Source: a virus
Taxonomy: Duplodnaviria; Caudoviricetes
Direction: 5' to 3' (one strand)
DNA: 64,000 bases
Virus record (IMG/VR): IMGVR_UViG_3300029705_000042
Below, one piece after another: positions 4,532 through 57,433 of the stretch. The notes below the pieces were generated by a model. The model was not told the DNA's origin and did no database searches. It was given only the letters and a program-made list of their open reading frames with translations. Both the position numbers and the translations under genes were made by a program. Positions within the stretch are counted from its first letter, which is position 1, and each line of letters starts with the position of its first letter.

Positions 4532-6122
4532 AAAATGCTTGCCTGACAATGTAGAAATACATTGATAGAATACATTTAATTGCAGGTAAACCCTTAGAGC
4601 CTTGCACCACAATAATCAGGAAACTAGATTATGAAGGTTTGACAACGCAAGGATTGGGCGTTCATGCAGCAAAGCACCCTACCGTTATACATAGACCATA
4701 TGTTAATAGTCGAGGGTGAATGTTCACAGACTATCCCCAAGTCGGGATTTAGGAATATCAACGATGTTGATTATAAAATAAGAGTGGAAATCTCGAATAC
4801 CTAAATCAAAAGGAGTACGGCATAAGTTAACGATGTGAGTGAAAATCTCTTAAATGGAAAAGGTGTACCCTTCCCCTATTCATATAGGAAAGGTGAAGAA
4901 ATAGTCGGACTTATACGAAAGTATAAAATTTATTTTGTTAGAACTTTAATTAAGGAAATAAAAGATGTTGAAGTATACTTATGAAGATGTATTAAAATCG
5001 TTTGAGGAACGAGGATATACATTGTTAATAACAAAGGATGAATATAAAAGTGTAACGCAAAAATTACAATACATATGCAATAAACACAAAGATAAAGGTG
5101 TTTTGGAAATTTCTTATTCTAAACTGATGAATGGTCGTGGTTGTACTTATTGCGGCAGAGAAAGAACTGTGGCAGCAAAAACTAAACCATTTGATTATAA
5201 TGAAGCGGTTGAGTTGTGTAAAAAATATGATTTTGAGTTTGTTGATATAAAAAGAGAAAATAGTGTAATATACATTTATTTTATATGCAACAAACATCGA
5301 GACCTTGGTGTTCAAAAAATGAGAAAAACAAATATGAAGCGAGGCATTAAGGGCTGTATATATTGCAAAGGTGATTTGCCTGAGTGGTATGTTAGGCAAA
5401 AAATTAATGAGTTATATCCACATATAAAGTTGACTGGTAATTATGTTAATATGTCTACGCCTATTGACTGTTATTGTGAAAAACATGATATCTATTGGAA
5501 GACGACTGCTCAAAACATATTATTTGGTCATGGTTGTATAGAATGTGGAAAAGAAAAGTTGTCCAAACAACATATTTATACCCAGAGTGAATTTGAAAAT
5601 TTGATTAGATTTGTTAATCCAGATATAGAGGTTATTAGCAATTATAAAGGTATGGAATATGATATAACAGTCAGATGTAAAAAATGCGGATATGTATGGA
5701 CGCTTAACGCTCAAAGCTTAAAAGCGAATGGAACTCGTTGCAAGAAATGTTCTTATACATACAAAGGTGAAGATAGAATTATAGAAATATTGCATAATTA
5801 CAATTGTAATTTTATTCATCAACATAAATTTGAAGATTGCAAAGACAAGAAATGTTTGCCATTTGATTTCTATTTGCCAGACTTTAATTTGTGCATTGAA
5901 TTTGATGGTGAGCAACATTACAAACCTAAATTTGGTATGGATAATTTTATACAAACACAAAAACATGACAAAATTAAAAATGAGTATTGTGAATCTCATA
6001 ACATTAGATTACTGAGAATTCCTTATTGGGAAGGTAGTAATTCTGAAAGCATTATAAAAAACAAATTAAATATAAACTAACAAAATAAATTAATAGGATT
6101 TACGCTCCTATTTGAGAAAATG
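4532..6122 (+). mobile_element. Group I intron 1 (1591 nt) in the tape measure gene
   Basis: Core motifs P (AATTGCAGGTAAA), Q (TTCATGCAGC), R (GTTCACAGACTA), S (AAGAAATAGTC); P1 CAGGC/GCCTG; P10 AATGCTT/AAGTATT; terminal G6122; splicing restores LTDIQQA-SITELIAGKRQGN. Confidence 0.9.
4965..6080 (+). CDS. Intron-encoded homing endonuclease: Cys/His zinc-ribbon repeats + Vsr/DUF559-like PD-(D/E)xK domain
   Basis: Repeated C..H...GC..C units; C-terminal PFDFYLPDFNLCIEFDGEQH...HDKIKNEYC..LLRIPYW; lies after the S element (P9 region). Confidence 0.8.
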   Translation: MLKYTYEDVLKSFEERGYTLLITKDEYKSVTQKLQYICNKHKDKGVLEISYSKLMNGRGCTYCGRERTVAAKTKPFDYNEAVELCKKYDFEFVDIKRENSVIYIYFICNKHRDLGVQKMRKTNMKRGIKGCIYCKGDLPEWYVRQKINELYPHIKLTGNYVNMSTPIDCYCEKHDIYWKTTAQNILFGHGCIECGKEKLSKQHIYTQSEFENLIRFVNPDIEVISNYKGMEYDITVRCKKCGYVWTLNAQSLKANGTRCKKCSYTYKGEDRIIEILHNYNCNFIHQHKFEDCKDKKCLPFDFYLPDFNLCIEFDGEQHYKPKFGMDNFIQTQKHDKIKNEYCESHNIRLLRIPYWEGSNSESIIKNKLNIN

Positions 6123-9100
6123 AAGTATTACAGAACTTATCGCTGGAAAACGCCAAGGAAATATCGTTTCCAGTTTAATGACGAATTTCGATACAGCCAG
6201 AGAAGCACTTGAAACCTCAATGAACTCTGCTGGTTCGGCAATGCAAGAGCATGAAAAGTGGCAACAGTCTCTCGAAGCTCAAATTAATAAGCTTAAGGCA
6301 TCTTGGCAAGGATTGTCTCAAGCGTTTTTAAAATCAGACTTTTTAAAAAAAGTTATTGATGTGCTAATTGACTTTGTAGATGTCTTAACTAAACTTATAG
6401 ATAAAGTTGGCGCATTTCCTGTTTTACTTGGCGTTTTTGCTGGATTTAAAGTTGTTCCTGCACTTTTTGGGAAAATAGGAAAAACGGCAAAAGCTGCTGG
6501 TGGTGGAATTAAAAGTTTCTCTGATATTTTAGCACTATTAAAACTATCATTCCCAAATGTTACAAAATTAATAGAGAACTTTATAGCATCTTTAAAAAAA
6601 AGCGAAGATGGTTCTCGTGGCTTTACTAAATCACTTAAAGGTATTTGGGATGCATTAAAACAACATTGGATTATTGCAGTTGTTGTAGCGGCTGTCACTA
6701 TATTAACTGCTGTTTTTGGATACCAAGCTAAACAAGCTGAAAAACTTTCCAAAAAAGTTGAAGAACTTACAGACAAATACAAAGAACAGCACGAAGAGTT
6801 AAAGAAGATTAAGAATGACTACGATACTACTAATGAATCTTCGATGATTTCCAAGTATGAGAAATTATCAAGGGGTGTAGACCATTATGGAAGAAATATT
6901 TCTTTAACCGCTGAAGAATATTCAGAATATCAAGATATTGTTAATAAAATTGCAGACCAATTCCCATCTCTTATTTCTGGGTATGATGAGCAAGGTAACG
7001 CATTGCTCTCTTGTAAGGGTAATGTCGAACAACTTACCGAAGCGTATGAAAAATTAATCCATGCTCAAAATCAAGCAATATTGACAAACACGGGCGATAT
7101 CGAAAAAGATTTTGAAAATACGCTTACAAAGGCTAGTGGTGAACATTGGTGGTCTAACGGTCATGGATTTTGGAAGGGTCTTTTTGTAAACGGGGCAGAT
7201 TTTAGTGACCATGTTGGTCTTGGCTCAGTTGATTTTATTAATCAAATTGGCAAACGAATGTTTGATTATGAGCTAAAAACTGACACCGCACAAGCCATTC
7301 AAGATTTAATAAATGCTAAGAATGACAACGAAAAGAAGAAAATATTAGAAAAGTTAAAGCAAGACAAATATGCCGAAGAAGAACTTAGAGACCTTCTTCC
7401 TAGTATGGGTTATGATGTAGGCTTTTTTGAATCACCTTATAAAGTACTTGAAGAAGCGTTAGAGAAAGATTCAGCAAAGTTACAAGAAGTTGTTAATAAC
7501 TATTATGCTTCTTTTGCTGAAGCAGTAGAAGAACAGAAAACAATAGCGCAGGCTAAATTAAGCGAAGCATTCGATGTTAGCAGTGTAATTAGCGGTTTAG
7601 ATTATGGCAACATAACCGAAGAATTGCAAACACTTGCCCATCAAACCGTTGCTAATTTAGATTTAGATTTCTTTGAGGAACTTAATGAGCAAGGTAAAAC
7701 TGTTGAACAATGGACAACAGAACTTCTTAATCAACTTAATGCAGTTGGTAAGGTTCATGGAAAAACTATTGAAGATGCCTTTGAATTGCAAACTCAATTT
7801 AACGGTGGCGACATTAATTATGGTGATTATGTTGATAAGTTAAGAGAAGTTGAAAAGGTAATCGACGGACTAAATTTAAAAGACGAAGCAAAAACTCAAC
7901 TTAAAATAAGTCTTGGCTTAGATGATGAGGGTGTTGTTGACCAATATGATGCGCTTATAAAGCGTTTGACAACTGGCGCAGAAAATAGTTTAGGCTTAGA
8001 CGCTACGGCTGTCAAAAAATTTATAGATGATTTATCGGTTGAAGAATTTTCGATTCTTGCAAAAATTGTTCCTAATTTAGAAGCTGGTACTACTCTCGAT
8101 GAAATTCAATCTTTAATTGATGATAAGTTGGCGACAGAATTCAAATTTGACATTACTGTTCAAACTGAAGGTATTGAAGCCCTTAACACTGCTCTATCCG
8201 AATCTCGTTCTGCTGCTGGTTTAACTTCTGAATCAATTGCAGCACTTACTGCAAGATATGAAGATTTAGATGGTTTTAATACCGCTGCTTTATTTGAAAA
8301 GACAGCTAATGGCATTCGCTTGAATAGTGATGAGTTAAGTAGACTTGAAGAACAATATGTAAATACTAATAAGCTTGAGATTGATAAAAATCTCAATTCT
8401 CTTGTTGAAAAGTATCAAGATGTCAATAATGAGCTGAAGACCAATACATCTTTGACATCAGACGAAAGAAAAGAGCTTGAACGCTCCAAAGAATCTCTTG
8501 CTGATAAGATTGATGAATTATCTACTCTTGCCTCTCAATATGATGGCTTAACTTCTGCTTTTACCAAGTGGCAAAATGCTCTTGATGGTGCCGAAGAAGG
8601 TGACAATTACGATTCTGTGTTTGAAAACCTTGAAGCTATGAAAGAGCTTGACGACAAGAAGCTGTATGGCACCGATAAATATAAAACCTTTGCTCAATTA
8701 ATGAGTTATGAAGATTTGTCGTCTGCGAGTATAGATGAAATTGGCAAAGCATTTGATAAGGGCTATAAAAAGGCTGAAAGATATTTTACGGAAACCAAAC
8801 AAGGTAGTACAAACTTCTTAAAAGACCTTAATAAGATTAACTCTGAATGGGCACATATAAATAAAAATGGTGATTGGGAAGTAAATATTAATGCCGAAGA
8901 AGCAGCCAAGAAACTTGGAATAAGTGTCGAGGCTGTTTTATTACTTTTAGACAAGCTTAAAGATTATGGTGTTGAAGTTAATATTGAAGATACTTCTGTT
9001 GATAACCTTAAAACTAAAATTGAGAAAACAGAAGCAAAACTTAAAGAACTTGGTCAATCCCCTGTTGATATTAATGTAGATATTGAAGCAAGCTCTTCTA

Positions 9101-11959: not shown

Positions 11960-12080
11960 TATGATAGGAAGAGGTTCAACGACTATCCCCTGTGTGGGAG
12001 TAGAGCTACAAGCGATTGGTAGTTCGAAAAGGTAGATATGTGAAATTAAAATAAATTTATTGATAAAGGTGGTGAGAAAA

Positions 12081-13331
12081 ATGATTGATGAAAATCAAAA
12101 GGTTATAGTAAGTTGGAATCCAAAAAATATAAATTATTATAAAAGTAAAGGATATACATTTACAAAATTATATGACGAGTTTGAAGTTTTTGTATGTGAC
12201 TTACATCCAAATTCAAATATTCTTTTGTCAAATGTGTGTGACCATTGTGGAAAAGAGTATGACATTTATTATAGTCATTATACGAGAGCAATGCTTAAAT
12301 TTGGTGAGGCTGTTTGTCAAGGTTGTGCATCAATTAGACAAGCAAAAAACACATTGGCACAAAGACAAGAAAATATGTATTCTAAAATATTAGAATTTTG
12401 TAAATTTTATAATTATAGTCTTGTCACCAGAAAAGAAGACTTAAAAAATGTTGATAGTGAAGTTGTTTATATTTGTCCTATTCACGGAGAAAATGTAACT
12501 AAAGTCAAAAATATTTTAAAAGGCAGTCAATGTTATAAGTGTAGTAGGGTGTTGGCATTAAAAAAGAAAAACTTAACAACATTAAAACAACGGCAAAATG
12601 ATTTATATCAAAAGGCGTTAAATGCATGTATGGAAAAGGGGTATGAGTTAATTACTCAAAAGACAGATATTATAAATAATACAACTTATATTGTATACAA
12701 ATGCCCTGTTCATGGTTTACAAAAAATGCGAATTTCAAATTTAATAAATGGGCGTGGTTGTCCTGAATGTAATTTTGATGCCAAAAGCGAAAAGTATAGA
12801 TTGTTGTCAGATGAAGTAGAAGAAAGAATAAGTGCTTTAGGTGGTAAACTTTTAAATAAAGAAGATTATATTAATCTAAATGAAAGAAATCTAATCATTG
12901 AATGTGCTTATTGTGGAACGCCATTTGTTACTTCCCTTGTACTTTTTACTCAACATGGTGGTCAAATGTGCGACAATTGTAAGGATACCGAAAGCATCGG
13001 TGAAAGACGAATCAGAAGTTATCTGGAATCAAATCATATTTTATTTGAACAAGAAAAATGGTTTTCTGACTGTAGAGATATTAAACCTCTTCCATTTGAT
13101 TTTTATTTGCCCGATTATAATATGCTCATAGAATTTGACGGTAAACAACATTACGAACAAGGTCATTTTACTCACTCACATTTATCATACACACAAGCAC
13201 ATGATGCTATAAAAAATAATTATTGTAAAGAAAACAATATCAATCTATTGAGAATTCCTTATTGGGATATTGATAAGATTGGAATAATATTAGATAATAA
13301 ACTTTTAATTTCACATAAAGATATAGTCTAA
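12081..13331 (+). CDS. Intron-encoded homing endonuclease (zinc-ribbon repeats + Vsr/DUF559-like domain), inserted in P8
   Basis: RBS AAGGTGGTG; CPxHG..GC..C repeats; PFDFYLPDYNMLIEFDGKQH; 3' end overlaps the P8/S elements. Confidence 0.8.
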   Translation: MIDENQKVIVSWNPKNINYYKSKGYTFTKLYDEFEVFVCDLHPNSNILLSNVCDHCGKEYDIYYSHYTRAMLKFGEAVCQGCASIRQAKNTLAQRQENMYSKILEFCKFYNYSLVTRKEDLKNVDSEVVYICPIHGENVTKVKNILKGSQCYKCSRVLALKKKNLTTLKQRQNDLYQKALNACMEKGYELITQKTDIINNTTYIVYKCPVHGLQKMRISNLINGRGCPECNFDAKSEKYRLLSDEVEERISALGGKLLNKEDYINLNERNLIIECAYCGTPFVTSLVLFTQHGGQMCDNCKDTESIGERRIRSYLESNHILFEQEKWFSDCRDIKPLPFDFYLPDYNMLIEFDGKQHYEQGHFTHSHLSYTQAHDAIKNNYCKENNINLLRIPYWDIDKIGIILDNKLLISHKDIV

Positions 13332-40505: not shown

Positions 40506-40654
40506 ATAAGAAAAAAATAAACAGAACGAATAAAATGCGGATTTTATCATCTTTATTTATATGTGATGCGCAGATATATAAATATAAGGTGATATATCTA
40601 AAACAAAACAAATTCTCTTTAACTCTAACTTATAAATAGAAAGGAGAAAATAAT

Positions 40655-40861
40655 ATGTCAAAAAAATACGCAAGTTTAACAACCTTGCAAACATTTTTAG
40701 AAAACTTAAAAAATATTTTTGCGTCAAAAACAGAAATTTTGTCTACTTATGAAACTAAGGCTGATGCAACTTCGAAATTAACAGAAGCTAAAACTTACAC
40801 AGATAACGCAGTGGCACAAAAATCTCAAGTCCAAATTATCACTTGGGAGGAAGATGATTAA
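40655..40861 (+). CDS. Small tail-associated protein
   Basis: RBS AAGGAG; AKTYTD motif. Confidence 0.65.
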   Translation: MSKKYASLTTLQTFLENLKNIFASKTEILSTYETKADATSKLTEAKTYTDNAVAQKSQVQIITWEEDD

Positions 40862-41028
40862 TGGCTTTATATTTAGGTAATAAAATTTTTAAAATTATTT
40901 TAAACAATACAATATACAACTTAATTGTGTCGTCTTCAATCACAAATGGAATTAATCTATTATCTTCTGATAATTATATATTAAAAGATATTAATGGAAT
41001 ACTTTTAACCGCAAAGGAGAGTGAATAA
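40861..41028 (+). CDS. Small hypothetical protein (55 aa, not in the ORF track)
   Basis: MALYLGNKIFK...LLTAKESE; TAATG-coupled; contains the RBS of the next gene. Confidence 0.55.
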   Translation: MALYLGNKIFKIILNNTIYNLIVSSSITNGINLLSSDNYILKDINGILLTAKESE

Positions 41029-41031
41029 ATT

Positions 41032-42708
41032 ATGGCTGAATATAAACTTTCTTATACTGCAAGCGAAATTAACGAAAGACTAAGAATAACAGATGGTATT
41101 CAAGATAACACAGAGGCGATTGCAGACCACGAAACGAGACTTGCTCATTGTGAAAATATAGCTCAAGATGTCGAAGAAACAGTAATGCCTACGCTTCAAA
41201 CTCATGACGAAGAAATCAGTAACCTTTCAGGCGAAATTAATACTATTAATGGCGATGTGGAAGATATTGCTCAGACTTTGGAATCTGAAATAAAGCCGAC
41301 GCTGACAACGCATACCGAACAAATTAGTCAACTTTCTTCTGAGAAAGCTAATAACTCAGATGTTGCAACATTAGTGAATACAGTGTCTGAAATAGATAGC
41401 GCCTTATTTGAACGCACAAATGGCACAAGTATTTATAACCCAGATACAATGTATGAAACTGGCAAAGTGCTTAAGCTAAATGACAATTTAATTGGAACGA
41501 ATTGTATTGATAGTACAACATCTTGGGGTGGTGCAGAAAGTTGCACAACCAAATTGGTTTGTGAGCCAAATCAAAGATATGTTCTTGTTGGTGCAGATGG
41601 CAATGTTACAAATGCTTACAATGTTGGTTTGTATGATGTGAATGGAGTTCTTCTTAAATGGTATGATGCCCCTGGCAATGCTGCAATTATTGAAACTCCA
41701 GTAAACGCTTACTATATGCGTGTGTCCTTCGTAAATCAAGAACAACGTGAGAAGATACGCTCTATCCAGTATTATGAAGAATCAAAGACATTCTATGGGT
41801 ATGTAGTTGGTGAATATCCAAAACTTGTTGAAAGATTTGTTTTAAAAGAAGACAACGCCATAAAACCAATAGTGATTATCATGCACGATGGTGGTAACTA
41901 TGATAATCGTGCGGAAATTCTTGCTGAATATGGTCTACATGGAACATTCTGTATAAACTCCGATTCAATTGCTTATATGGATGTGGAATTTAAAAACCTA
42001 TTAACACAAGGGCATGATGTAGCTCTATATGGTGGTTTAGGCACACAGCCTACCACATATGTCACGGGAACGGATGATAAAACCGCTTGGTATGAGTATA
42101 TTAAAGGCGGTCTTGATGCACTTGCGGCAAAGGGCGTATATCTTCCGACACAGTATGGGTGTAGAGGACATAAAGGAAGTAAATATATTACGGAAGTCTG
42201 TCAGGAGCTTGGCTTCAAATATATTTCCTGCACTTACGAATTGCACAGCGGGGAAACTATGGATGAAGACACAGATATTGAATGGGTATCGACCTACGAA
42301 AATGACCCCGACAATGCATTATTTAGCCCAAGTGTTCTTTCCGAAGATACTACCGCAAACAGAGCTTTTGTTGATAACGCAATAACGAACAATTATATTG
42401 TTGGATTGTTTACTCACAATGTCGAAGACATAACAACTGCTTCCTATAATCTTTCTACCACGGCATATAGAGATATTCTCTCCTATGTAAAAGAAAAGGT
42501 CGATGCAGGTGAAATTGAAGCTCTTACCATGCGAGAATTTTACAACAAATATCACGATTGGGATGGACAGCAGAGAGACCACGCAAGAGCAATGGGCATG
42601 GGTTCATATGGTGCAATCGAAACGAGTGAAAGTACAAACACGACGGAAACTTGGACTTTCGAGCTTGAAGATGGTTCTACTGTCACGAAAGCGGTGGTGA
42701 TTGCGTGA
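41032..42708 (+). CDS. Tail appendage protein: constant N-terminal 100 aa + variable C-terminus with polysaccharide-deacetylase (NodB)-like domain
   Basis: MAEYKLSYTASEINERL head and coiled coil; IIMHDGG..YGLHGTFCIN..GHDVALY..LFTH; crossover site at LSSE. Confidence 0.75.
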   Translation: MAEYKLSYTASEINERLRITDGIQDNTEAIADHETRLAHCENIAQDVEETVMPTLQTHDEEISNLSGEINTINGDVEDIAQTLESEIKPTLTTHTEQISQLSSEKANNSDVATLVNTVSEIDSALFERTNGTSIYNPDTMYETGKVLKLNDNLIGTNCIDSTTSWGGAESCTTKLVCEPNQRYVLVGADGNVTNAYNVGLYDVNGVLLKWYDAPGNAAIIETPVNAYYMRVSFVNQEQREKIRSIQYYEESKTFYGYVVGEYPKLVERFVLKEDNAIKPIVIIMHDGGNYDNRAEILAEYGLHGTFCINSDSIAYMDVEFKNLLTQGHDVALYGGLGTQPTTYVTGTDDKTAWYEYIKGGLDALAAKGVYLPTQYGCRGHKGSKYITEVCQELGFKYISCTYELHSGETMDEDTDIEWVSTYENDPDNALFSPSVLSEDTTANRAFVDNAITNNYIVGLFTHNVEDITTASYNLSTTAYRDILSYVKEKVDAGEIEALTMREFYNKYHDWDGQQRDHARAMGMGSYGAIETSESTNTTETWTFELEDGSTVTKAVVIA

Positions 42709-43211
42709 ATTTCTCAAATGTAAAAGGTATGAGCATTCCCGAGGGGAATATTGTTAAAATTATGCAAGGCGACACGGTTTTGTGGCAAAAGGAAACCGAA
42801 GAAGTTATCGTCAATCTTATTGACACCGTAGGTTATATGGACAATACACGATTGTCTTCTTCCGCAGGCACGACTAAAAATAGTACGGGCAATGTTACCA
42901 CAGGCTTTATCGAATTGGGTGTTGTCGGTGATGTTTATAGGACATCAGGTGTTAATTTCTCATCTAATGGAAGTGGTTCGAATATCATCTGTTTCTACAA
43001 TTCCGCACAATCTTTCACTTCTCATAGTTTGTATTTTGGTGCGGTTAATTCCAATCAAACGGCGCAGGGTATCAATGTAACGATTGATGGTGATGGGAAC
43101 TTGACATTGACACTTAAATCCGATTTCACAAGAACGGGTGACTATATTCGTTTAACGGGTTACGGTAGCGGTGCGAACTTAATTTTGACAAAGAATCAAG
43201 AAATCGCATAA
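42705..43211 (+). CDS. Small beta-rich protein inside the invertible segment
   Basis: GTGA overlap with upstream gene; VGYMDNTRLSSSAG...TTGFI domain resembles two domains in the reverse cassette. Confidence 0.7.
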   Translation: MNFSNVKGMSIPEGNIVKIMQGDTVLWQKETEEVIVNLIDTVGYMDNTRLSSSAGTTKNSTGNVTTGFIELGVVGDVYRTSGVNFSSNGSGSNIICFYNSAQSFTSHSLYFGAVNSNQTAQGINVTIDGDGNLTLTLKSDFTRTGDYIRLTGYGSGANLILTKNQEIA

Positions 43212-43239
43212 GGAGTCAATAGAGTAAAACACAATATCA

Positions 43240-43281
43240 ATACAGAGGAACACCATCAAAGGTGGCTTCCTTCTGTATTTC
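43240..43281. terminator. Bidirectional hairpin between the two convergent cassettes
   Basis: ATACAGAGGAA..CACC...GGTG..TTCCTTCTGTAT. Confidence 0.55.
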
Positions 43282-43288
43282 GTAATAA

Positions 43289-45265
43289 TTATTCGATGGG
43301 TTCATTGATAGTGATTATGGATGTTTCGTCTATGGTGACAGCACTGACAACCATATGCGTATATTTTCCGCTTGTATTGTCGACTTCTATATAGACGATA
43401 TTTCCATCTTCATCAAGTTCAGGTTTATAACCGTCAATATATGTTTGGTTTGTTGTCAACGCTTCATAGTCAAAATTGTCAGTTATCGCAACACCCGTAC
43501 CATTAAATAAATTAAACACACAACCATAATTATCGTTAGAATTATTGACGATGTTTTTCAGATATATTTTGCAACATACACCGCTCGGCATAGCCATATA
43601 TCCCGTACAACAAGAACCTGTGTTATCTCGAAACTGTCCGCTACTTCCTGACATTCTTACATTTTCCTTGAATCCCTTGCCGTTGTATATCGTTGTTCCG
43701 TCAATATCAACAGCCGTGGGGATAAGATTAGTATAGGTCGGTGTGTCAGGTTCTTCCGTACCGCCTGTTGTAAGGTCAACGATAAACGAACTACCACGAC
43801 CAACACGGACAACATTGACTTTGTTTGTGTTATAGTCGGCAACAATGCCGTTGACAGATGCTTCGGTTATTGTTCCTGCCGTGTAAGATAAATCACTTCG
43901 CAGGTGCATACTGTCTGTTTCAACAAGAATTATCGGAATGCCGCCCGTTGTTGCTCCTACATAATCTCTGTGAACATGACCGCCAATGCAAAATTCTACG
44001 GTTGCACCGCAATCTGCATAATCACCTGTACGGGAATTATACGCATCAAGCATAGCCGTAACTGTTGAAGCATCTGTACTCAATCCCGTCAAAGGAATCG
44101 GTCTAACATCGTATTGGTTGTAATCAGGCAAATACCAAATATGCGACACAACAACGATGTGCCAACCCTCTGCCGTACCAATTAATGCCTGTTTAAGAAA
44201 TTCCTGCTGGTCGGAAGTCATACCCTTGTATGCTGTGTCAAGGAATACGTATCTTGTCTTTTCTGCGCCATTGTCGATGTAATACCAAGTCACACCACCA
44301 TGAACTATATCACTCGTTTCCTCGGCTGCAAGTAGGTACCCGTAAATATACTGTTCCGAAAAAAGATTATTTGTGGAATTCCCGTCATCGTGATTTCCAA
44401 CAACGCTATGATGATTCGGAAGGTCTTTAAGCTGTTTGCGCCATTCCCACAAGTATTCCATCGTGTCATAGTCGGTTGCTTCATCGTTGACAATATCACC
44501 ACCAAAGAATGTTTTAGACATTCCCGTGTGCTTGTACAGATATTTCAGCAAAGTGGGTGACATCTGCGAGCCGTAGTTCCAATGGCTGTCCGAATAGAAA
44601 AGAAATGCGGACTTATTCATTCCTGCGGTACAGAGCTTTTCGTTTATCTCCTGCGCTCCTGCTTCAAGGGCTGTCTGCCAATATGACGGAATAATATCTT
44701 CATTGGAATCTGTATTTTCTAATGCAGTAACTCTTGCATCTAATGCAGTTACCGAAGTCTCTAGTTCAGTAAATCTGGTATCGTCGGTGTCAATAATTTC
44801 TTCATTTACAGTGATAACTGAAGATTCATTTATATCTTGGCAGGTAATCCTAAACATTCCAATATCACCATAAGGAGGAATAGTAAATTGAATAATATTA
44901 TTAGACGAATCTTTGACAGCATTAAAATAAGAACTTAATTCCTCCATAAGATTCGCACCTGTGATATATGTTCCATCAGATGAAAAGAAAGCAATACTAC
45001 CATGACCAAATGATGAGTCTATATACATAGTAATATTTTTTAATCTAATTGTATCTCCAACAGTACCAGATATTAAACCAGTTGTATCACAATTAGCTTC
45101 AACATAAATCCCAGAACTATTTATACGAGTGTTATTCAAATAACCAACACTGCCGTCTGTTCCTATTAATATTTGCGATATGTCTATCTCTGAAACAGCA
45201 GTAAGGAGTGCATTTGTATAATTGCCTCCAATTTCATCCTTTATTTCTTCAATCTCAGAAGAAAG
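43289..45265 (-). CDS. Alternative (currently silent) C-terminal cassette: calcineurin-like metallophosphoesterase flanked by beta domains
   Basis: Motifs SDSH, GGDIVND, VGNHD, VSH, GHVH; only minus-strand long ORF in the tail module; begins at the LSSE repeat with no clear RBS. Confidence 0.8.
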   Translation of the reverse strand, partial: LSSEIEEIKDEIGGNYTNALLTAVSEIDISQILIGTDGSVGYLNNTRINSSGIYVEANCDTTGLISGTVGDTIRLKNITMYIDSSFGHGSIAFFSSDGTYITGANLMEELSSYFNAVKDSSNNIIQFTIPPYGDIGMFRITCQDINESSVITVNEEIIDTDDTRFTELETSVTALDARVTALENTDSNEDIIPSYWQTALEAGAQEINEKLCTAGMNKSAFLFYSDSHWNYGSQMSPTLLKYLYKHTGMSKTFFGGDIVNDEATDYDTMEYLWEWRKQLKDLPNHHSVVGNHDDGNSTNNLFSEQYIYGYLLAAEETSDIVHGGVTWYYIDNGAEKTRYVFLDTAYKGMTSDQQEFLKQALIGTAEGWHIVVVSHIWYLPDYNQYDVRPIPLTGLSTDASTVTAMLDAYNSRTGDYADCGATVEFCIGGHVHRDYVGATTGGIPIILVETDSMHLRSDLSYTAGTITEASVNGIVADYNTNKVNVVRVGRGSSFIVDLTTGGTEEPDTPTYTNLIPTAVDIDGTTIYNGKGFKENVRMSGSSGQFRDNTGSCCTGYMAMPSGVCCKIYLKNIVNNSNDNYGCVFNLFNGTGVAITDNFDYEALTTNQTYIDGYKPELDEDGNIVYIEVDNTSGKYTHMVVSAVTIDETSIITINEPIE

Positions 45266-45347
45266 CGAACTAGAAAAATAGTTTAATATATGATACATAT
45301 TATATACGGAAGCTTATGCTTTCAAAGATTTTTGGAGGAAATGTATT

Positions 45348-46346
45348 ATGTATGAACAAATGAGAAATGATTTTTTAGTAGCGCTTTCGAGTGAAGAAAA
45401 GGTTGATATTACTACGACATTAAGAATTTTAGACCAAGTAATAATGAATTATGATGTAAGATTGAAGGAAGCGGACTTGGATACTTACGAAGGGGAATTG
45501 CCAGAAATTGCGAAGACTTATTTGATTTGCAAAAAAATGACAGGATTATCTAACGGAACATTGGAAAATTATAGAATAATTTTAAATGTATTCTTTAAGA
45601 AGGTTAAAAAGTTACCGCAATTTATTACAGCAAATGAAATAAGAGAATTTCTTTATACATATCAAGAACAAAAAAGTGTGTCGCATCGCACTATTGATAA
45701 ATATAGAGAGTATATTACAAGGTTCTTCGCTTGGGCATATAACGAGGGGTATATTTCAGATAATCCTGCAAGAAACATAGCGGCGATTAAATATGAAGAG
45801 AAGCCACGAGAGGCATTAACACAAGTGGAGTTGGAATATTTGAGAATGGCTTGTGAAACGGTGCGTGAACGAGCGATTATAGAATTTTTATATAGCACTG
45901 GCGCAAGGGTGTCGGAACTAATAGTTATTAAAAAATCTGATGTAAATTGGTATGAAAAATCTGTACACTTATTTGGTAAAGGAAGAAAACATAGAATTAG
46001 TTTTCTGAATGCTAAAGCTGAAGTTGCGTTAATAAAGTATCTTGAATCTAGAGATGATGATTGTGAATATTTATTTGTTTCTATGAAGAAACCATATCAA
46101 AATCTTAGCAAAGATGGGATTGAAAAGATTGTGCGCAATATTGCGCACAGAGCATCAAATAATATTGGGAAGCATATTACACCACATATTTTAAGGCATA
46201 CTACAGCAACAATGGCATTGCAAAGCGGAATGCCAATTGCCGACATTAGTAAATTGCTTGGTCATGAGAGCATTGATACGACAATGATATATGCGAAATC
46301 ATCAATTGAAGATGTGCGCTCAGGACATAAGAAACATATTATTTAG
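45348..46346 (+). CDS. Tyrosine recombinase (XerC/D-like), candidate invertase
   Basis: SAM-like N-terminus; catalytic R (TGARVSEL), K (GKGRK), HxxR (HILRH), H (LGH), Y (TMIYA); RBS GGAGG. Confidence 0.92.
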   Translation: MYEQMRNDFLVALSSEEKVDITTTLRILDQVIMNYDVRLKEADLDTYEGELPEIAKTYLICKKMTGLSNGTLENYRIILNVFFKKVKKLPQFITANEIREFLYTYQEQKSVSHRTIDKYREYITRFFAWAYNEGYISDNPARNIAAIKYEEKPREALTQVELEYLRMACETVRERAIIEFLYSTGARVSELIVIKKSDVNWYEKSVHLFGKGRKHRISFLNAKAEVALIKYLESRDDDCEYLFVSMKKPYQNLSKDGIEKIVRNIAHRASNNIGKHITPHILRHTTATMALQSGMPIADISKLLGHESIDTTMIYAKSSIEDVRSGHKKHII

Positions 46347-46375
46347 TAAGCGATAAGGTTATCTTATCGCTTGTT
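46347..46375 (+). terminator. Hairpin after the recombinase
   Basis: AAGCGATAAG-GTTAT-CTTATCGCTT. Confidence 0.55.
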
Positions 46376-46474
46376 AATAACTAATAAAGATATAATAAAT
46401 AAAAAAACATTAAATATTAAGTTACATGAATTGTTTGATAAAAGAAATAAATTTTAGAAAGGAGATATGTTAAA

Positions 46475-47710
46475 TTGATTACACAAAACTTATCGACTTT
46501 AAAAATAAATAAAATGACTCAGGAACAATATGACCGTGAACTTGGCGCTGGCAATATTAGCGAAACGGAGTTGTATTTGGTTCCCGATGAATCTATTGAT
46601 TTAAGCGGTTTTATAAGTGCATCCAATCCCGTTGGTACGGGCTCTCTTAGTATCAACAGAGATAGCGATACAGAAATTGGCAATTATTCATCGGCAGTTG
46701 GATATAATGTAGCTGCCATTGGTGAAAGTTCTCACGCTGAGGGTGGAGGCACAACTGCCTCAGGTGACGCATCTCATGCTGAAGGTGGCGAGACGACAGC
46801 TTCTGGTTACTGTTCTCATTCCGAAGGCAATGTTACCGAGGCTTCTGGCGACTATGCACATGCAGAAGGTTTTGGTGCAGTTGCTTCTGGGGAAGGTTCG
46901 CATTCTGAAGGCGGTGCTACTGTGGCATCTGGACAATTTTCTCACGCAGAAGGTGGCAACACAACAGCTTCGGGCATTGCTTCTCACGCTGAGGGTTGCT
47001 ATACTACAGCATTAAATTATCAACATGCGCAAGGACATTACAATGACACATCTAAAGCCGCAGCATACACCATCAGTGGTACAAGCGCTGGCACGGCTTT
47101 TGTAATAGGAAATGGAACATCTGCTACTAAATCCAATGCATTTAGAGTAACTGGACTTGGGCAAGTTATTGGTAAATCCGCATATCAGTCGACTGGTGCT
47201 GACTATGCTGAGTTCTTTGAATGGGCAGACCAAAACTTAAACAACGAGGATAGAGTTGGATATTTTGTCACATTTGACAATGGTAGATATATTCGCAAGG
47301 CAAGAGAAGGCGATTATATTTTAGGAGTTGTTAGTGGAAATCCATGTGTACTTGGAAACAATGATGAATGTTGGTTGGGGCAGTATGAAATGGACGAATG
47401 GGGACGATTTGTTTATGAAGATGTTGAAGAAATCGACAAAGAGACTGGCGAAACCCAAAAATATTCATTTTATAAAGTAAATCCTAATTACGATAAAGAT
47501 AGAGAATATACACATAGGCAAGACCGCTCTGAATGGGATGCAATTGGACTGATGGGTGTCTTATCTGTTCGTGATGACGGGACTTGTGAAATAGATGGCT
47601 ATTGTAAGTGTACTGACGAAGGTGTTGCAACCGCAACAGAAAGAGGATTTGACACTTATAGGGTCATTGAAAGGGTGAATGAAAATATCGTGAAGGTCGT
47701 ATTAAAATGA
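46475..47710 (+). CDS. Tail spike/fibre with 14-aa beta-roll repeats and C-terminal peptidase G2-like intramolecular chaperone
   Basis: About 8x SHAEG..T.ASG; ADYAEFFEW...VGYFVT...ILGVVS...R.EWDAIGLMG. Confidence 0.8.
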   Translation: MITQNLSTLKINKMTQEQYDRELGAGNISETELYLVPDESIDLSGFISASNPVGTGSLSINRDSDTEIGNYSSAVGYNVAAIGESSHAEGGGTTASGDASHAEGGETTASGYCSHSEGNVTEASGDYAHAEGFGAVASGEGSHSEGGATVASGQFSHAEGGNTTASGIASHAEGCYTTALNYQHAQGHYNDTSKAAAYTISGTSAGTAFVIGNGTSATKSNAFRVTGLGQVIGKSAYQSTGADYAEFFEWADQNLNNEDRVGYFVTFDNGRYIRKAREGDYILGVVSGNPCVLGNNDECWLGQYEMDEWGRFVYEDVEEIDKETGETQKYSFYKVNPNYDKDREYTHRQDRSEWDAIGLMGVLSVRDDGTCEIDGYCKCTDEGVATATERGFDTYRVIERVNENIVKVVLK

Positions 47711-50237: not shown

Positions 50238-50462
50238 ATGAAAAATAATAAAATGTACAAACAAATATTTTCACTTAAACTTGCAGGATATCTTATGATG
50301 AACGGTATTCCAATTAAAAGAATTCATCATAATTTAAAAATAAAAAATAAAGATGTTTATTTATTTGAGGATACGCCTGAATTAACAAAGTCTATGTTGA
50401 AATACAAAGAAATTATAGCGGACAAAGGAGAACAATATGCCAATTTTAACAAAAGAAGTTGA
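50238..50462 (+). CDS. Small DUF5659-like protein
   Basis: IFSLKLAGYLMMNG....I..N......VYLFEDTPEL. Confidence 0.55.
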   Translation: MKNNKMYKQIFSLKLAGYLMMNGIPIKRIHHNLKIKNKDVYLFEDTPELTKSMLKYKEIIADKGEQYANFNKRS

Positions 50463-51606
50463 GGTTATACCTATTGGAAAATCAATTTCACATTATAAAA
50501 GTTTAGGATATGATGCAAAATATCGTCATCCTTTAATTGTAAAAGTTGAAGATTTGTCTAAACGAAGCGATGTAAAAATAGAAGTGTTGTGCGATATATG
50601 TAATAAAAATAAAATGATGGTTAGATATGCGGATTATACAACTACAATCGAAAAGACTGGATGCTATTCCTGTAAAGAATGTAGTGCCATCAAAATTGCT
50701 CAAACGAACTTAAAAAGATATGGAGTTCGAAATCCTCTTCAAAACAATGTTTTTAAAGAGAAGTCAAGGCAAACTTGTATAAATTTTTATGGGGTTGATA
50801 AACCATTAAAACTAAAAGAATTCCAAGAAAAGATGAAACAAACATGTTTAGAAAGATATGGGGTTGAATATGCTTCTCAGTCTAAAGAGATTCAAGAAAA
50901 AATCAAACAAACATGTTTAGAAAAATACGGCGTTGAAAACGCTGGAATGTCTAAGAAATCCAAGGAAAAACAATTAAAAACATTTCGTGAACGATACGGC
51001 GTTGACAATCCAATGGAACTTCAAAAAATTAAAGATAAAATAGCAAATATTTTCAATGAACGATATGGAGTAGATAATCCGTTTAAATCGCCAGAAATCA
51101 GAGAAAATATTTCTAAGTCATACTATCAAAACGGCACTCAAAAAACATCAAAGCAACAATTATATTTGTATAATTTATATGGTGGCGAATTAAACTACCC
51201 TATTAAATATTATGATGCAGATATTTGTTTACCAAATGAACGCATTATTATAGAATTTGATGGTTCTGGGCACGATTTGAATGTCAAATACGGACGATTA
51301 ACACGAGAAGAATTCAATCAAAAAGAGATTATTCGTAATTGCGTTATTAAAAGAGAAGGTTATAAGCAAATAAGAATAATCTCAAAAACCGACAAACTTC
51401 CAAATGACGAAACTTTACTTCGAATGTTAGATGAAGCAAAAATTTATTTTACAACAACTAATCATACTTGGGTAAATTATGATATTGATAATTCAAGGAT
51501 GATAAATGCAGAAAACAAATGTGCGAATGGCGTTTTTTATAATTATGGCAATTTGTACAATGTAAAAGGTCATAAAACTATAAAGGAGGTTTCATATGGA
51601 AACTAA
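50437..51606 (+). CDS. Free-standing putative homing endonuclease (ERYGVEN repeats + Vsr-like domain)
   Basis: About 6 repeats of KQTCLERYGVE; C-terminal DADICL....IIEFDGSGH; overlaps both neighbours. Confidence 0.7.
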   Translation: MPILTKEVEVIPIGKSISHYKSLGYDAKYRHPLIVKVEDLSKRSDVKIEVLCDICNKNKMMVRYADYTTTIEKTGCYSCKECSAIKIAQTNLKRYGVRNPLQNNVFKEKSRQTCINFYGVDKPLKLKEFQEKMKQTCLERYGVEYASQSKEIQEKIKQTCLEKYGVENAGMSKKSKEKQLKTFRERYGVDNPMELQKIKDKIANIFNERYGVDNPFKSPEIRENISKSYYQNGTQKTSKQQLYLYNLYGGELNYPIKYYDADICLPNERIIIEFDGSGHDLNVKYGRLTREEFNQKEIIRNCVIKREGYKQIRIISKTDKLPNDETLLRMLDEAKIYFTTTNHTWVNYDIDNSRMINAENKCANGVFYNYGNLYNVKGHKTIKEVSYGN

Positions 51607-55999: not shown

Positions 56000-57433
56000 A
56001 TGATGCGTATGACCACATTTGACAAAGAAAGAAAAATCAAAAGAGCCTTTGACACAAGTAAAGTAATCAGAACAGCAGCTTACATTAGGGTGTCAACAGA
56101 TGAGCAAGCAAAACACGGTTTCTCTATTGAAGCACAGAAAGAAGGTTTACAGAAATATGCAGACGAACACGGTTATAGAATTGTAGATTGGTATATTGAT
56201 GATGGTAAGTCTGCTCGTAAGAAAACAAGTAAACGGAAAGAATATTTGAGACTAATTGAAGATGCTAAAAAGGGCAAATTTGAAATGATTATTTTCAAGT
56301 GTTTAGACAGATGGTTTAGAAATATCAGCGAGTATTACAAGGCGCAATCTGTTTTAGACGACAAAGGTATTGGTTGGGAATGTAGCGAAGAAGATTTTGA
56401 TACAACCACTCGTGATGGTCGTTGGAAGCTTCATATTTATCTTATGTTAGCGCAAGACGAAGCTGACAAAACAAGTGAGCGTATCAACTATGTGTTTGCA
56501 CATAAAATTCAAAATAGAGAAGCTATATCTGGTTCTCAACCATATGGTTTTAAGGTAAAAGAGATAGATGGTATTAAAAGGGTTGTTAAGGATAAAACCG
56601 TATCTCATATTGTTGATGATATTTTTGATAACTTTGAATTGTTTAACTCCAAAAGAGCGGCACTATATTTTGTACAAGATAAATACGACATTAAAGTGGA
56701 ATATAAGTTGATAAGCAATATATTAACCAATTCGTATTATTACGGACATTATCGTGGTGTAGATGATTATATTTGGGGTGGTAGTTATATTACAAAAGAA
56801 CGCTATGATAGAATTCAAAAAATGTTGAAGAAAAATGTTAAAGCTCGTAAAAATAAAAAGAATCAAGATTATATTTTTAGTGGATTATTGGTTTGTAGTA
56901 TTTGTGGTTGTAAACTGTCTGCTCATTCTAGTCGCTTCCCTTTGGCAGATGGTAGCGAAAAGACATATTTGTTTTATAGATGTAACAGGTCTGCTATGGC
57001 TAACAAATGTACATCCAGAGGGACATTTAGTGAAATTAAATTAGAGCAAAAGTTAATACAATCAATTGAAGAAGAAATTGAAGATTACATTTGCGAATAT
57101 GAATTGGATATTAAGAAAGAAAAGAAACCACAGATTGACACTAAAAGCATAAAAGAAGAAATACAACGGTTAAATATTTCTTGGCGTAAAGGCAGAATGG
57201 AAGAGGCAGAGTATGATTATGAGTTTGAACGATTGCAAAAGAAGTTGCAAAAGGCTCAAGAAGAACTTCCAGAAAAACATGATTTGACTCCTTTATATGA
57301 TTTTTTGAATAGTGGCTGGAAAGATATTTATGATACTCTAACTTCTGTTGAAAAAAGAGCATTGTGGCGTTCGGTAATTGATGAAATAAAAGTTGATGTG
57401 TTGAACAAAGAATTTAAAATTAAGTTTATATAA
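56000..57433 (+). CDS. Large serine recombinase (phage integrase)
   Basis: AAYIRVSTDEQ catalytic Ser, DRWFR, PYGF recombinase domain, CSIC...C...C zinc ribbon, coiled coil. Confidence 0.93.
   Translation: MMRMTTFDKERKIKRAFDTSKVIRTAAYIRVSTDEQAKHGFSIEAQKEGLQKYADEHGYRIVDWYIDDGKSARKKTSKRKEYLRLIEDAKKGKFEMIIFKCLDRWFRNISEYYKAQSVLDDKGIGWECSEEDFDTTTRDGRWKLHIYLMLAQDEADKTSERINYVFAHKIQNREAISGSQPYGFKVKEIDGIKRVVKDKTVSHIVDDIFDNFELFNSKRAALYFVQDKYDIKVEYKLISNILTNSYYYGHYRGVDDYIWGGSYITKERYDRIQKMLKKNVKARKNKKNQDYIFSGLLVCSICGCKLSAHSSRFPLADGSEKTYLFYRCNRSAMANKCTSRGTFSEIKLEQKLIQSIEEEIEDYICEYELDIKKEKKPQIDTKSIKEEIQRLNISWRKGRMEEAEYDYEFERLQKKLQKAQEELPEKHDLTPLYDFLNSGWKDIYDTLTSVEKRALWRSVIDEIKVDVLNKEFKIKFI

Follow-up and report, generated by a model that had tools for sequence, protein, structure and literature searches.

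A probable inversion switch in a phage tail-fibre gene that would exchange two enzyme-like heads of different folds

In this study, which was based on a 64-kb stretch of DNA from the phage record IMGVR_UViG_3300029705_000042 (the window, 64,000 nt) and on its comparison with related loci, we analysed a tail-fibre locus at 41032-46346 that is spanned by four open reading frames (ORFs), P0001, P0004, P0002 (reverse) and P0003, and whose neighbouring genes encode tail proteins. The locus is likely to be a two-state site-specific inversion switch of the tail-fibre gene, which would be run by the adjacent Xer-like tyrosine recombinase. The crossover site would lie in the L-S-S-E codons that close a constant 104-codon 5' part (...ISQLSSE), and a second, inverted site would stand at the front of a reverse cassette that lacks a usable start. 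A crossover between the cores of the two sites would turn over a segment of 3,908 bp (41345-45252). As the segment now lies, the phage would produce a fibre of 558 aa that carries a CE4/NodB-like head, together with a 168-aa partner protein; after inversion, a 758-aa fibre with a metallophosphoesterase head would be made, and the CE4 cassette and the partner would be silent. The predicted recombinant junctions read ...ATTAGTCAACTTTCTTCTGAGATTGAAGAAATAAAGG on the left and, on the minus strand, ...TCTAGTTCGCTTTCTTCTGAGAAAGCTAATAACTC on the right.

The 13-mer CTTTCTTCTGAGA was found exactly twice in the window, on the plus strand at 41332-41344 and on the minus strand at 45253-45265, i.e., in inverted orientation; 0.16 matches were expected by chance and none of 100 shuffles reached two. 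The extended arms, 41325-41344 and 45253-45272 (pair I17), are complementary at 17 of 20 positions with 3908 nt between them. Both copies of the core read L-S-S-E in the frame of their ORFs (residues 101-104 of P0001 and 12-15 of P0002), and joining P0001 1-104 to P0002 16-669 gives the predicted fusion of 758 aa with the junction QISQLSSEIEEIK, the frame of which is kept for any crossover point within the core. In the orientation seen, the peptide across the junction is QISQLSSEK.... In P0002, the LSSE is preceded by 11 meaningless codons and its ATG at 45298 has no Shine-Dalgarno sequence, whereas the recombinase gene, which is 49 nt away on the opposite strand, does have a GGAGG. Homologues of P0002 carry real N-terminal domains that are joined at ...QLSSEI... 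(P0007, P0009 and P0016), and one of these, P0009, is a full fibre that combines a homologue of the reverse head with an N-terminus like that of this phage. This N-terminus, MAEYKLSYTASEI..., also recurs on fibres with other heads (P0009, P0076 and P0107). Additionally, the left-site 20-mer is identical in three other sequences, G001, L088 and L087, whose proteins are otherwise unrelated.

Recombinases that were 73-86% identical to P0003 were found in five other phages (G001/L001, L094, L095, L096/L097 and L101/L102), the contigs of which are mostly 118-163 kb long, that of L094 being 18 kb. In each of these relatives, the 11-bp core TTCTTCTGAGA occurs once on the plus strand inside a fibre gene at ...S/N-Q-L-S-S-E and once on the minus strand, where it lies 83-98 nt upstream of the start of the recombinase and opens a reverse cassette with neither a conserved start codon nor an N-terminal anchor. 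With the window, there are six recombinase-linked loci, and their 12 arms all carry the core unchanged, while the flanking sequences and the heads vary between the six phages. The perfect inverted repeat of L094 has 21 bp and that of L095 24 bp, and in L101 the repeat extends over 31 bp at 93.5%. The N-terminal part of the fibre differs in length, from 50 aa in G001 to 104 aa in the window; P0001 as a whole has no significant match in G001, yet the final 28 bp of G001 match 41317-41344 of the window at 96% identity, which shows that the constant parts differ while the site is conserved. Three fibre genes on contigs that carry no recombinase (L091/L092, L093 and L115) keep the LSSE, but in these the core is changed synonymously to TTCTTCCGAGA or TTCTTCAGAGA. 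Thus, a changed core was found in none of the 12 linked arms and in 3/3 unlinked genes, which points to a constraint on the DNA and not on the protein alone. The switch architecture that had been proposed in the first-pass annotation of this DNA, in which the N-terminus is constant, the two cassettes begin at the repeat and converge, and a recombinase adjoins them, is strongly backed by the layout of these relatives.

The contig G001 (162,648 bp, from metagenome 3300012979) contains the core exactly twice, at 113-123 on the minus strand before the recombinase and as its final 11 bases, so that the last base of the contig is the last base of the left core. This end fits a branch in the assembly graph, with two sequences following the site, which could come from inversion or from two co-existing strains whose cassettes differ. 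At its other end (position 1 of L001), G001 begins 112 nt inside the reverse cassette, which breaks off there after the codons ...S-I-E-E-L-N; this resembles the L-N-S-E junction of a distant clade that is described below and may be a second branch point.

An all-against-all comparison, on the opposite strand, of 80 IMG/VR loci whose recombinases are 40-48% identical brought up near-identical contigs that are distinguished by an exact flip immediately upstream of the recombinase, namely L055 compared with L038, L040, L042, L056 and L074, and L057 compared with L059 and L068. In this clade, the recombinases of which are 41% identical, the flipped segments are 719-743 bp long, 99.6-99.9% identical inside and have collinear flanks, and they break at two short inverted sites, CTAAATAGTGA and CTCTATAGTGA. 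Their orientation determines a tail protein of 164 or 152 aa with a shared first 69 residues that end in ...AINALNS and with alternative C-termini, the unused tip lying on the opposite strand; its junction motif, L-N-S-E/D (...ALNS followed by E or D), parallels the L-S-S-E of the window. Five other phages share the layout and the core, and flips occur in a distant clade, but no flipped copy of the present locus was found.

Two further groups of loci with recombinases 64% identical to P0003 were observed. The loci L107-L110 have an identical 333-aa recombinase but quite different fibre modules upstream, and their homology breaks at one point, ...TCTGGACCGAATG, which is approximately 200 nt upstream of the recombinase (locus 6796-6801). 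One of these modules has a reverse transcriptase, as in diversity-generating retroelements, and these phages also encode ParA/ParB. The break pattern suggests site-specific cassette replacement. In L002 (4900-5350), the recombinase lies beside a collagen-like fibre gene that ends six codons after ...AISSLSE; the site-like DNA, TAGTTCGCTTTCTGAG, is short of one TCT codon, and a helix-turn-helix gene is found where the cassettes would be. This locus looks like a decayed switch.

The recombinase P0003 matches Pfam Phage_integrase (PF00589, E 1.3e-33) and a SAM-like N-domain, and the closest NCBIfam models are Xer-like. Its catalytic residues R, K, H-x-x-R, H and Y are visible in the sequence and the gene is intact; the protein consists of the SAM-like core-binding domain and the catalytic domain only, with no arm-binding domain detected. 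It starts 75 nt past the right arm, and in the spacer between them (45273-45347) an alignment of five loci revealed the conserved TATATATAAT and GGAGGAAATG. In the relatives, the outer arm of the right site reads TTGACC (-35-like) on the plus strand, and a conserved TATAAT follows after 17 nt; together they resemble a promoter of the recombinase that overlaps its own site. This overlap suggests that the recombinase could repress itself by binding that site. A promoter scan gave no more candidates than chance predicts (26, with 26.2 expected), and no promoter claim was built on it. The family of this recombinase is large, with 1,625 proteins at E <= 1e-60. P0003 does not belong to the resolvase/invertase serine family, and the only serine recombinase is a large one approximately 10 kb away (56000-57433, 477 aa; PHROG integrase E 6.5e-84, nearest NCBIfam model XisF below its cut-off). 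This protein is probably the real (lysogeny) integrase of the phage, and hence lysogeny need not be the task of the tyrosine recombinase among the tail genes. The sequence details given in the first pass, namely the inverted 13-bp core reading L-S-S-E in both ORFs, the intact tyrosine recombinase 75 nt beyond the right repeat, the hairpin between the convergent cassettes and the in-frame fusion of 758 aa, were all found again in our analysis, the hairpin as a stem-loop (Table 1) that is likely to be a two-way terminator.

Several observations weigh against a working switch, and they have to be set beside these data. No flipped form was found for this phage: 21/21 contigs read that carry P0003, which came from several samples and were gathered by exact look-ups of P0002 and P0003, have the orientation of the window. 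The samples that carry this phage include SRR7032240, SRR7032241, ERZ27248306, ERZ27248351 and JGI 3300018493 and 3300022660. Homologue searches of the protein collection with either head found no 758-aa fusion, and in the L101 lineage, whose recombinase is 73% identical, all six contigs have one orientation. Moreover, the outer flank of the right arm differs from that of the left at three positions, and the window has a degenerate GCGAAC in place of the TTGACC of the relatives, with TATGAT as the -10 box. These findings would be accounted for by a frozen or nearly frozen switch, i.e., a phage with a fixed CE4 head that carries a silent metallophosphoesterase cassette and flips rarely or not at all. 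We consider this explanation unlikely. The recombinase is intact and the 11-bp core is perfect in both arms, while the silent cassette of 654 codons is still open and has all five catalytic motifs, which is unexpected after long disuse. Furthermore, consensus assemblies hide minority orientations. The variant of the right outer flank, TTCGC, is also present at the left site of L096. As for the GCGAAC box, low expression of the recombinase is a possible reason for one dominant orientation. We infer that P0003 probably acts on these sites and that the switch may still flip in this phage.

An explanation that departs further from a switch gives the recombinase another job, such as integration, multimer resolution or the capture or exchange of cassettes, and takes the repeat for a shared LSSE linker and the reverse ORF for an independent gene or a remnant. 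The LSSE junction does occur in fibres with no recombinase nearby, from which it follows that the similarity of the repeats is partly due to the common descent of fibre linkers. In cultured distant relatives (34-37% identity), the recombinase follows a forward tail gene and there is no reverse cassette, and the identical recombinases of L107-L110 stand beside different fibre modules with a shared break. This explanation is nevertheless improbable, as it does not account for a core that is invariant in every linked arm and changed in every unlinked gene, for the fixed distance of the right arm from the recombinase, or for reverse cassettes that lack a conserved start and an anchor domain. It is also opposed by the G001 contig that ends on the core, by the real flips in a related clade and by the large serine recombinase that is available for integration. 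Finally, the inverted pair alone is unremarkable, being 17th of the 162 inverted pairs in the 8-kb region, where a 13-bp match is not rare, but a chance match is hardly credible because it is contradicted by the same core at the same two positions in five other phages; the pair carries weight because of its position and this recurrence. The inversion switch therefore remains the reading that we prefer, and its features are listed in Table 1.

Table 1. Features of the tail-fibre locus (positions refer to the window)
Feature	Position	Strand	Details
Tail-fibre gene P0001	41032-42708	+	558-aa ORF
Constant part of the fibre gene	41032-41343	+	codons 1-104 with own start codon; ends ...EQISQLSSE
Left crossover site	41325-41344	+	TAGTCAAC + CTTTCTTCTGAGA; family-wide invariant core TTCTTCTGAGA at 41334-41344
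Head cassette A	41345-42708	+	P0001 residues 105-558; expressed in the orientation seen
Partner gene P0004, inside the invertible segment	42705-43211	+	168 aa; 4-nt overlap with the stop of cassette A
Stem-loop between the convergent cassettes	~43240-43279		RNA fold -19.8 kcal/mol, z -2.2
Reverse ORF P0002	43289-45298	-	669 aa
Head cassette B	43289-45252	-	P0002 residues 16-669; silent in the orientation seen
Right crossover site	45253-45272	-	minus strand TAGTTCGC + TTTCTTCTGAGA; invariant core at 45253-45263
Constant spacer	45273-45347	+	-10-like box, small hairpin, GGAGG ribosome-binding site of the recombinase
Tyrosine recombinase P0003, presumed invertase	45348-46346	+	332 aa

Sequence searches of both heads against solved structures gave no match, and their folds were found by fold comparison. 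Cassette A consists of a linker and a beta-rich region that are followed by a CE4/NodB-like barrel (~275-522). An AlphaFold2 model of P0001 255-558, which was built with 49 relatives from an exhaustive profile search, had a mean predicted local distance difference test score (pLDDT) of 87.6. Its top Foldseek matches were the peptidoglycan deacetylases PdaC, Bc1960 and SpPgdA (E ~1e-6, probability 1.0), and CE4 esterases and polysaccharide deacetylases were matched as well; its structure neighbours in the Atlas were clusters of PF01522, with template modelling (TM) scores of 0.61-0.70 by query. The same segment scores below the Pfam cut-off for PF01522 (16.9 bits against 23.1), and 14/50 members of the head family match that model at E <= 0.01, the best at 1.5e-8. 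The canonical CE4 metal triad is Asp-His-His, carried by the TFDD and H-x-x-x-H motifs. The P0001 head has no canonical His-His metal motif, D329-x-x-x-Y333 being in its place, and its family conserves F/H-D286, D329, Y333, Y375, D448 and H462. Because the His-His pair is absent, deacetylase activity is uncertain, and the head is best called deacetylase-like in its modelled fold.

Cassette B has a beta-rich domain, a metallophosphoesterase domain (~230-445) and a C-terminal beta-rich domain. P0002 matches Pfam Metallophos (PF00149) with 24.2 bits, which is above the cut-off of 21.5, and it has all five metallophosphoesterase motifs. Four of these, D237-x-H, G-D267, G-N-H303-D and G-H441-x-H, were located by pattern, while the histidine of the fourth motif is invariant in the family alignment (H197 of A3, in the stretch VVVSHIW). 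A model of P0002 190-525 (pLDDT 85.2) had as its top Foldseek matches purple acid phosphatases, SMPDL3A and sphingomyelinase-like phosphodiesterases, Rv0805 and GpdQ. Judging from the motifs and the model, phosphoesterase activity of this head is likely. The first-pass claim of two enzyme-fold heads, a deacetylase-like one and a metallophosphoesterase, therefore stands for the folds, while for the CE4 head it does not extend to a deacetylase activity. The substrates that had been proposed, acetylated glycans for one head and teichoic acid or capsule for the other, are guesses.

The partner protein P0004 resembles two beta-rich domains of P0002, at 542-634 (E 7e-8) and 33-128 (E 8e-5), and the CE4 head may thus receive in trans a module that is built into the other head. 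P0004 travels with the CE4 head in L115 and L093. In L115, the DNA is 84% identical to 41299-43215 of the window, a block that opens shortly upstream of the site and closes shortly past the partner gene, which indicates that the CE4 head and its 168-aa partner form one movable cassette that begins at the site; since this homology begins only at 41299, the stretch upstream of that position is a separate module. The CE4-head fibre gene of L093 (ERZ28633576 scaffold_1044, 5689-7761) gives the recorded protein only when TAG is read as Gln, which is a sign of stop-codon recoding in this relative.

The pairs of heads differ among the relatives and comprise two metallophosphoesterases, on both sides a fibre together with a metallophosphoesterase gene that is separate from it, a Kelch-like set opposite a Big_3 cassette, and an uncharacterised head opposite an M14 peptidase. 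In L101 (4997-6928), a head that is joined at the LSSE site has a Pfam Peptidase_M14 match; an LSSE-joined head in L088 (12686-14164) looks like an M14 zinc carboxypeptidase by reading of its sequence only. The set of swappable heads thus looks as if it includes peptidases.

The first pass had regarded the locus as an undescribed kind of system. This cannot be upheld, as the switching of receptor-binding proteins by a phage-encoded tyrosine invertase was already published in 2018, for prophages of Bifidobacterium and Eggerthella and under the name of the Rin shufflon (Mavrich et al. 2018; PMC6109161; PMC8778435). In that system, a phage-encoded, armless, Xer-like tyrosine invertase lies beside a constant Rc gene, Rv cassettes and rix sites of 8-11 bp (PMC6109161; PMC8778435). 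The Rin shufflon is the closest published system. The present locus resembles its description in having a tyrosine recombinase with no arm domain beside a receptor-binding locus, a constant N-terminal part with cassettes that have no start of their own, short asymmetric repeats at the cassette starts (8-11 bp in Rin and 11-13 bp here) that are rare elsewhere (the core occurs twice in 64 kb here and twice in a 162-kb relative), and a separate integrase elsewhere in the genome. The site sequence is unrelated. Moreover, Rin exchanges several small lectin-like C-terminal tips in Actinobacteria prophages of approximately 40 kb, whereas here there would be two states only, in a phage of approximately 162 kb that is probably of Clostridia, with whole heads of 454 and 654 residues that have different enzyme folds and one of which comes with a partner gene. 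A Rin-type switch would be expected to show both orientations in reads or close genomes; here, the 21 contigs have one orientation and flips were seen only in the clade at 41% identity.

A constant fibre part, opposed variable parts, a co-flipped partner gene and an adjoining recombinase are also shared with Mu Gin, P1 Cin and p15B Min. The Gin, Cin and Min proteins are serine invertases that use sites of approximately 26 bp and an enhancer, in contrast to the tyrosine recombinase found here. With Rci and the R64 shufflon (pilV), again likened by description, the locus shares a tyrosine recombinase, short asymmetric sites within the coding sequence and the swapping of C-terminal segments; that system, however, varies a plasmid-borne conjugative pilus adhesin and has several segments. 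The L038/L055 and L057/L068 groups have a recombinase of the same family (41% full-length identity), also at the end of the tail module, with ALNS in place of QLSS before the E of the junction. They differ from the window in their segment of ~720 bp, which gives two tips of ~90 residues on a 152-164-aa protein, in their core ATAGTGA and in that both orientations were observed. The literature searched did not describe this recombinase family, the LSSE site or the swapping of enzyme heads, and 40600-46500 had no DNA match among the INPHARED phages. It is very probable that the locus evolved as an inversion switch of the Rin/Rci type, with heads that are unusually large and catalytically different.

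Two observations lie outside the switch itself. ORFs of the HNH/homing-endonuclease type are found among the tail genes at 4965-6080, 12060-13331 and 50437-51606, the first two of them between pieces of a very long tape-measure-like gene. L101 and L102 are 99.99% identical over 8.5 kb, and upstream (locus ~1-1010), near the start of a beta-helix tailspike gene (519 and 660 aa), a 261-bp stretch is in opposite orientation with offset flanks; this may reflect either another invertible element or an error of the assembly.

The recombinase is annotated as 'integrase' in Terrisporobacter phage TPELB_ph1 and Clostridium phage phiCp-D, and in the latter its gene follows a tail 'polysaccharide deacetylase'. 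These annotations of cultured relatives point to Clostridia hosts and to routine mis-annotation. As the family is routinely labelled in this way, phages may be wrongly scored as temperate and the variability of their fibres overlooked. Tentatively, and with somewhat less than even confidence, we propose that a widespread, undescribed family of LSSE switches exists in large phages of gut or rumen Clostridia, in which a dedicated tyrosine invertase would read the 11-bp core, placed within the L-S-S-E codons of the fibre shaft, and toggle the virion between receptor-modifying heads of different catalysis, i.e., CE4-like esterase, metallophosphoesterase and, in relatives, M14 peptidase. The compact in-frame site of 11-20 bp together with a small recombinase could be a tool for the switching of protein domains. 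Variation in the host range of phages is commonly ascribed to the tips that bind the host. In this locus, what would alternate are entire enzyme domains with unrelated folds; this suggests a phage that switches which wall polymer is cut or modified, and we infer that host wall polymers are the targets of the heads and that the heads determine the host range. If this is true, LSSE switches could let one genome hedge between hosts that differ not just in the sugar to which a fibre binds but in the chemistry of their wall polymers.

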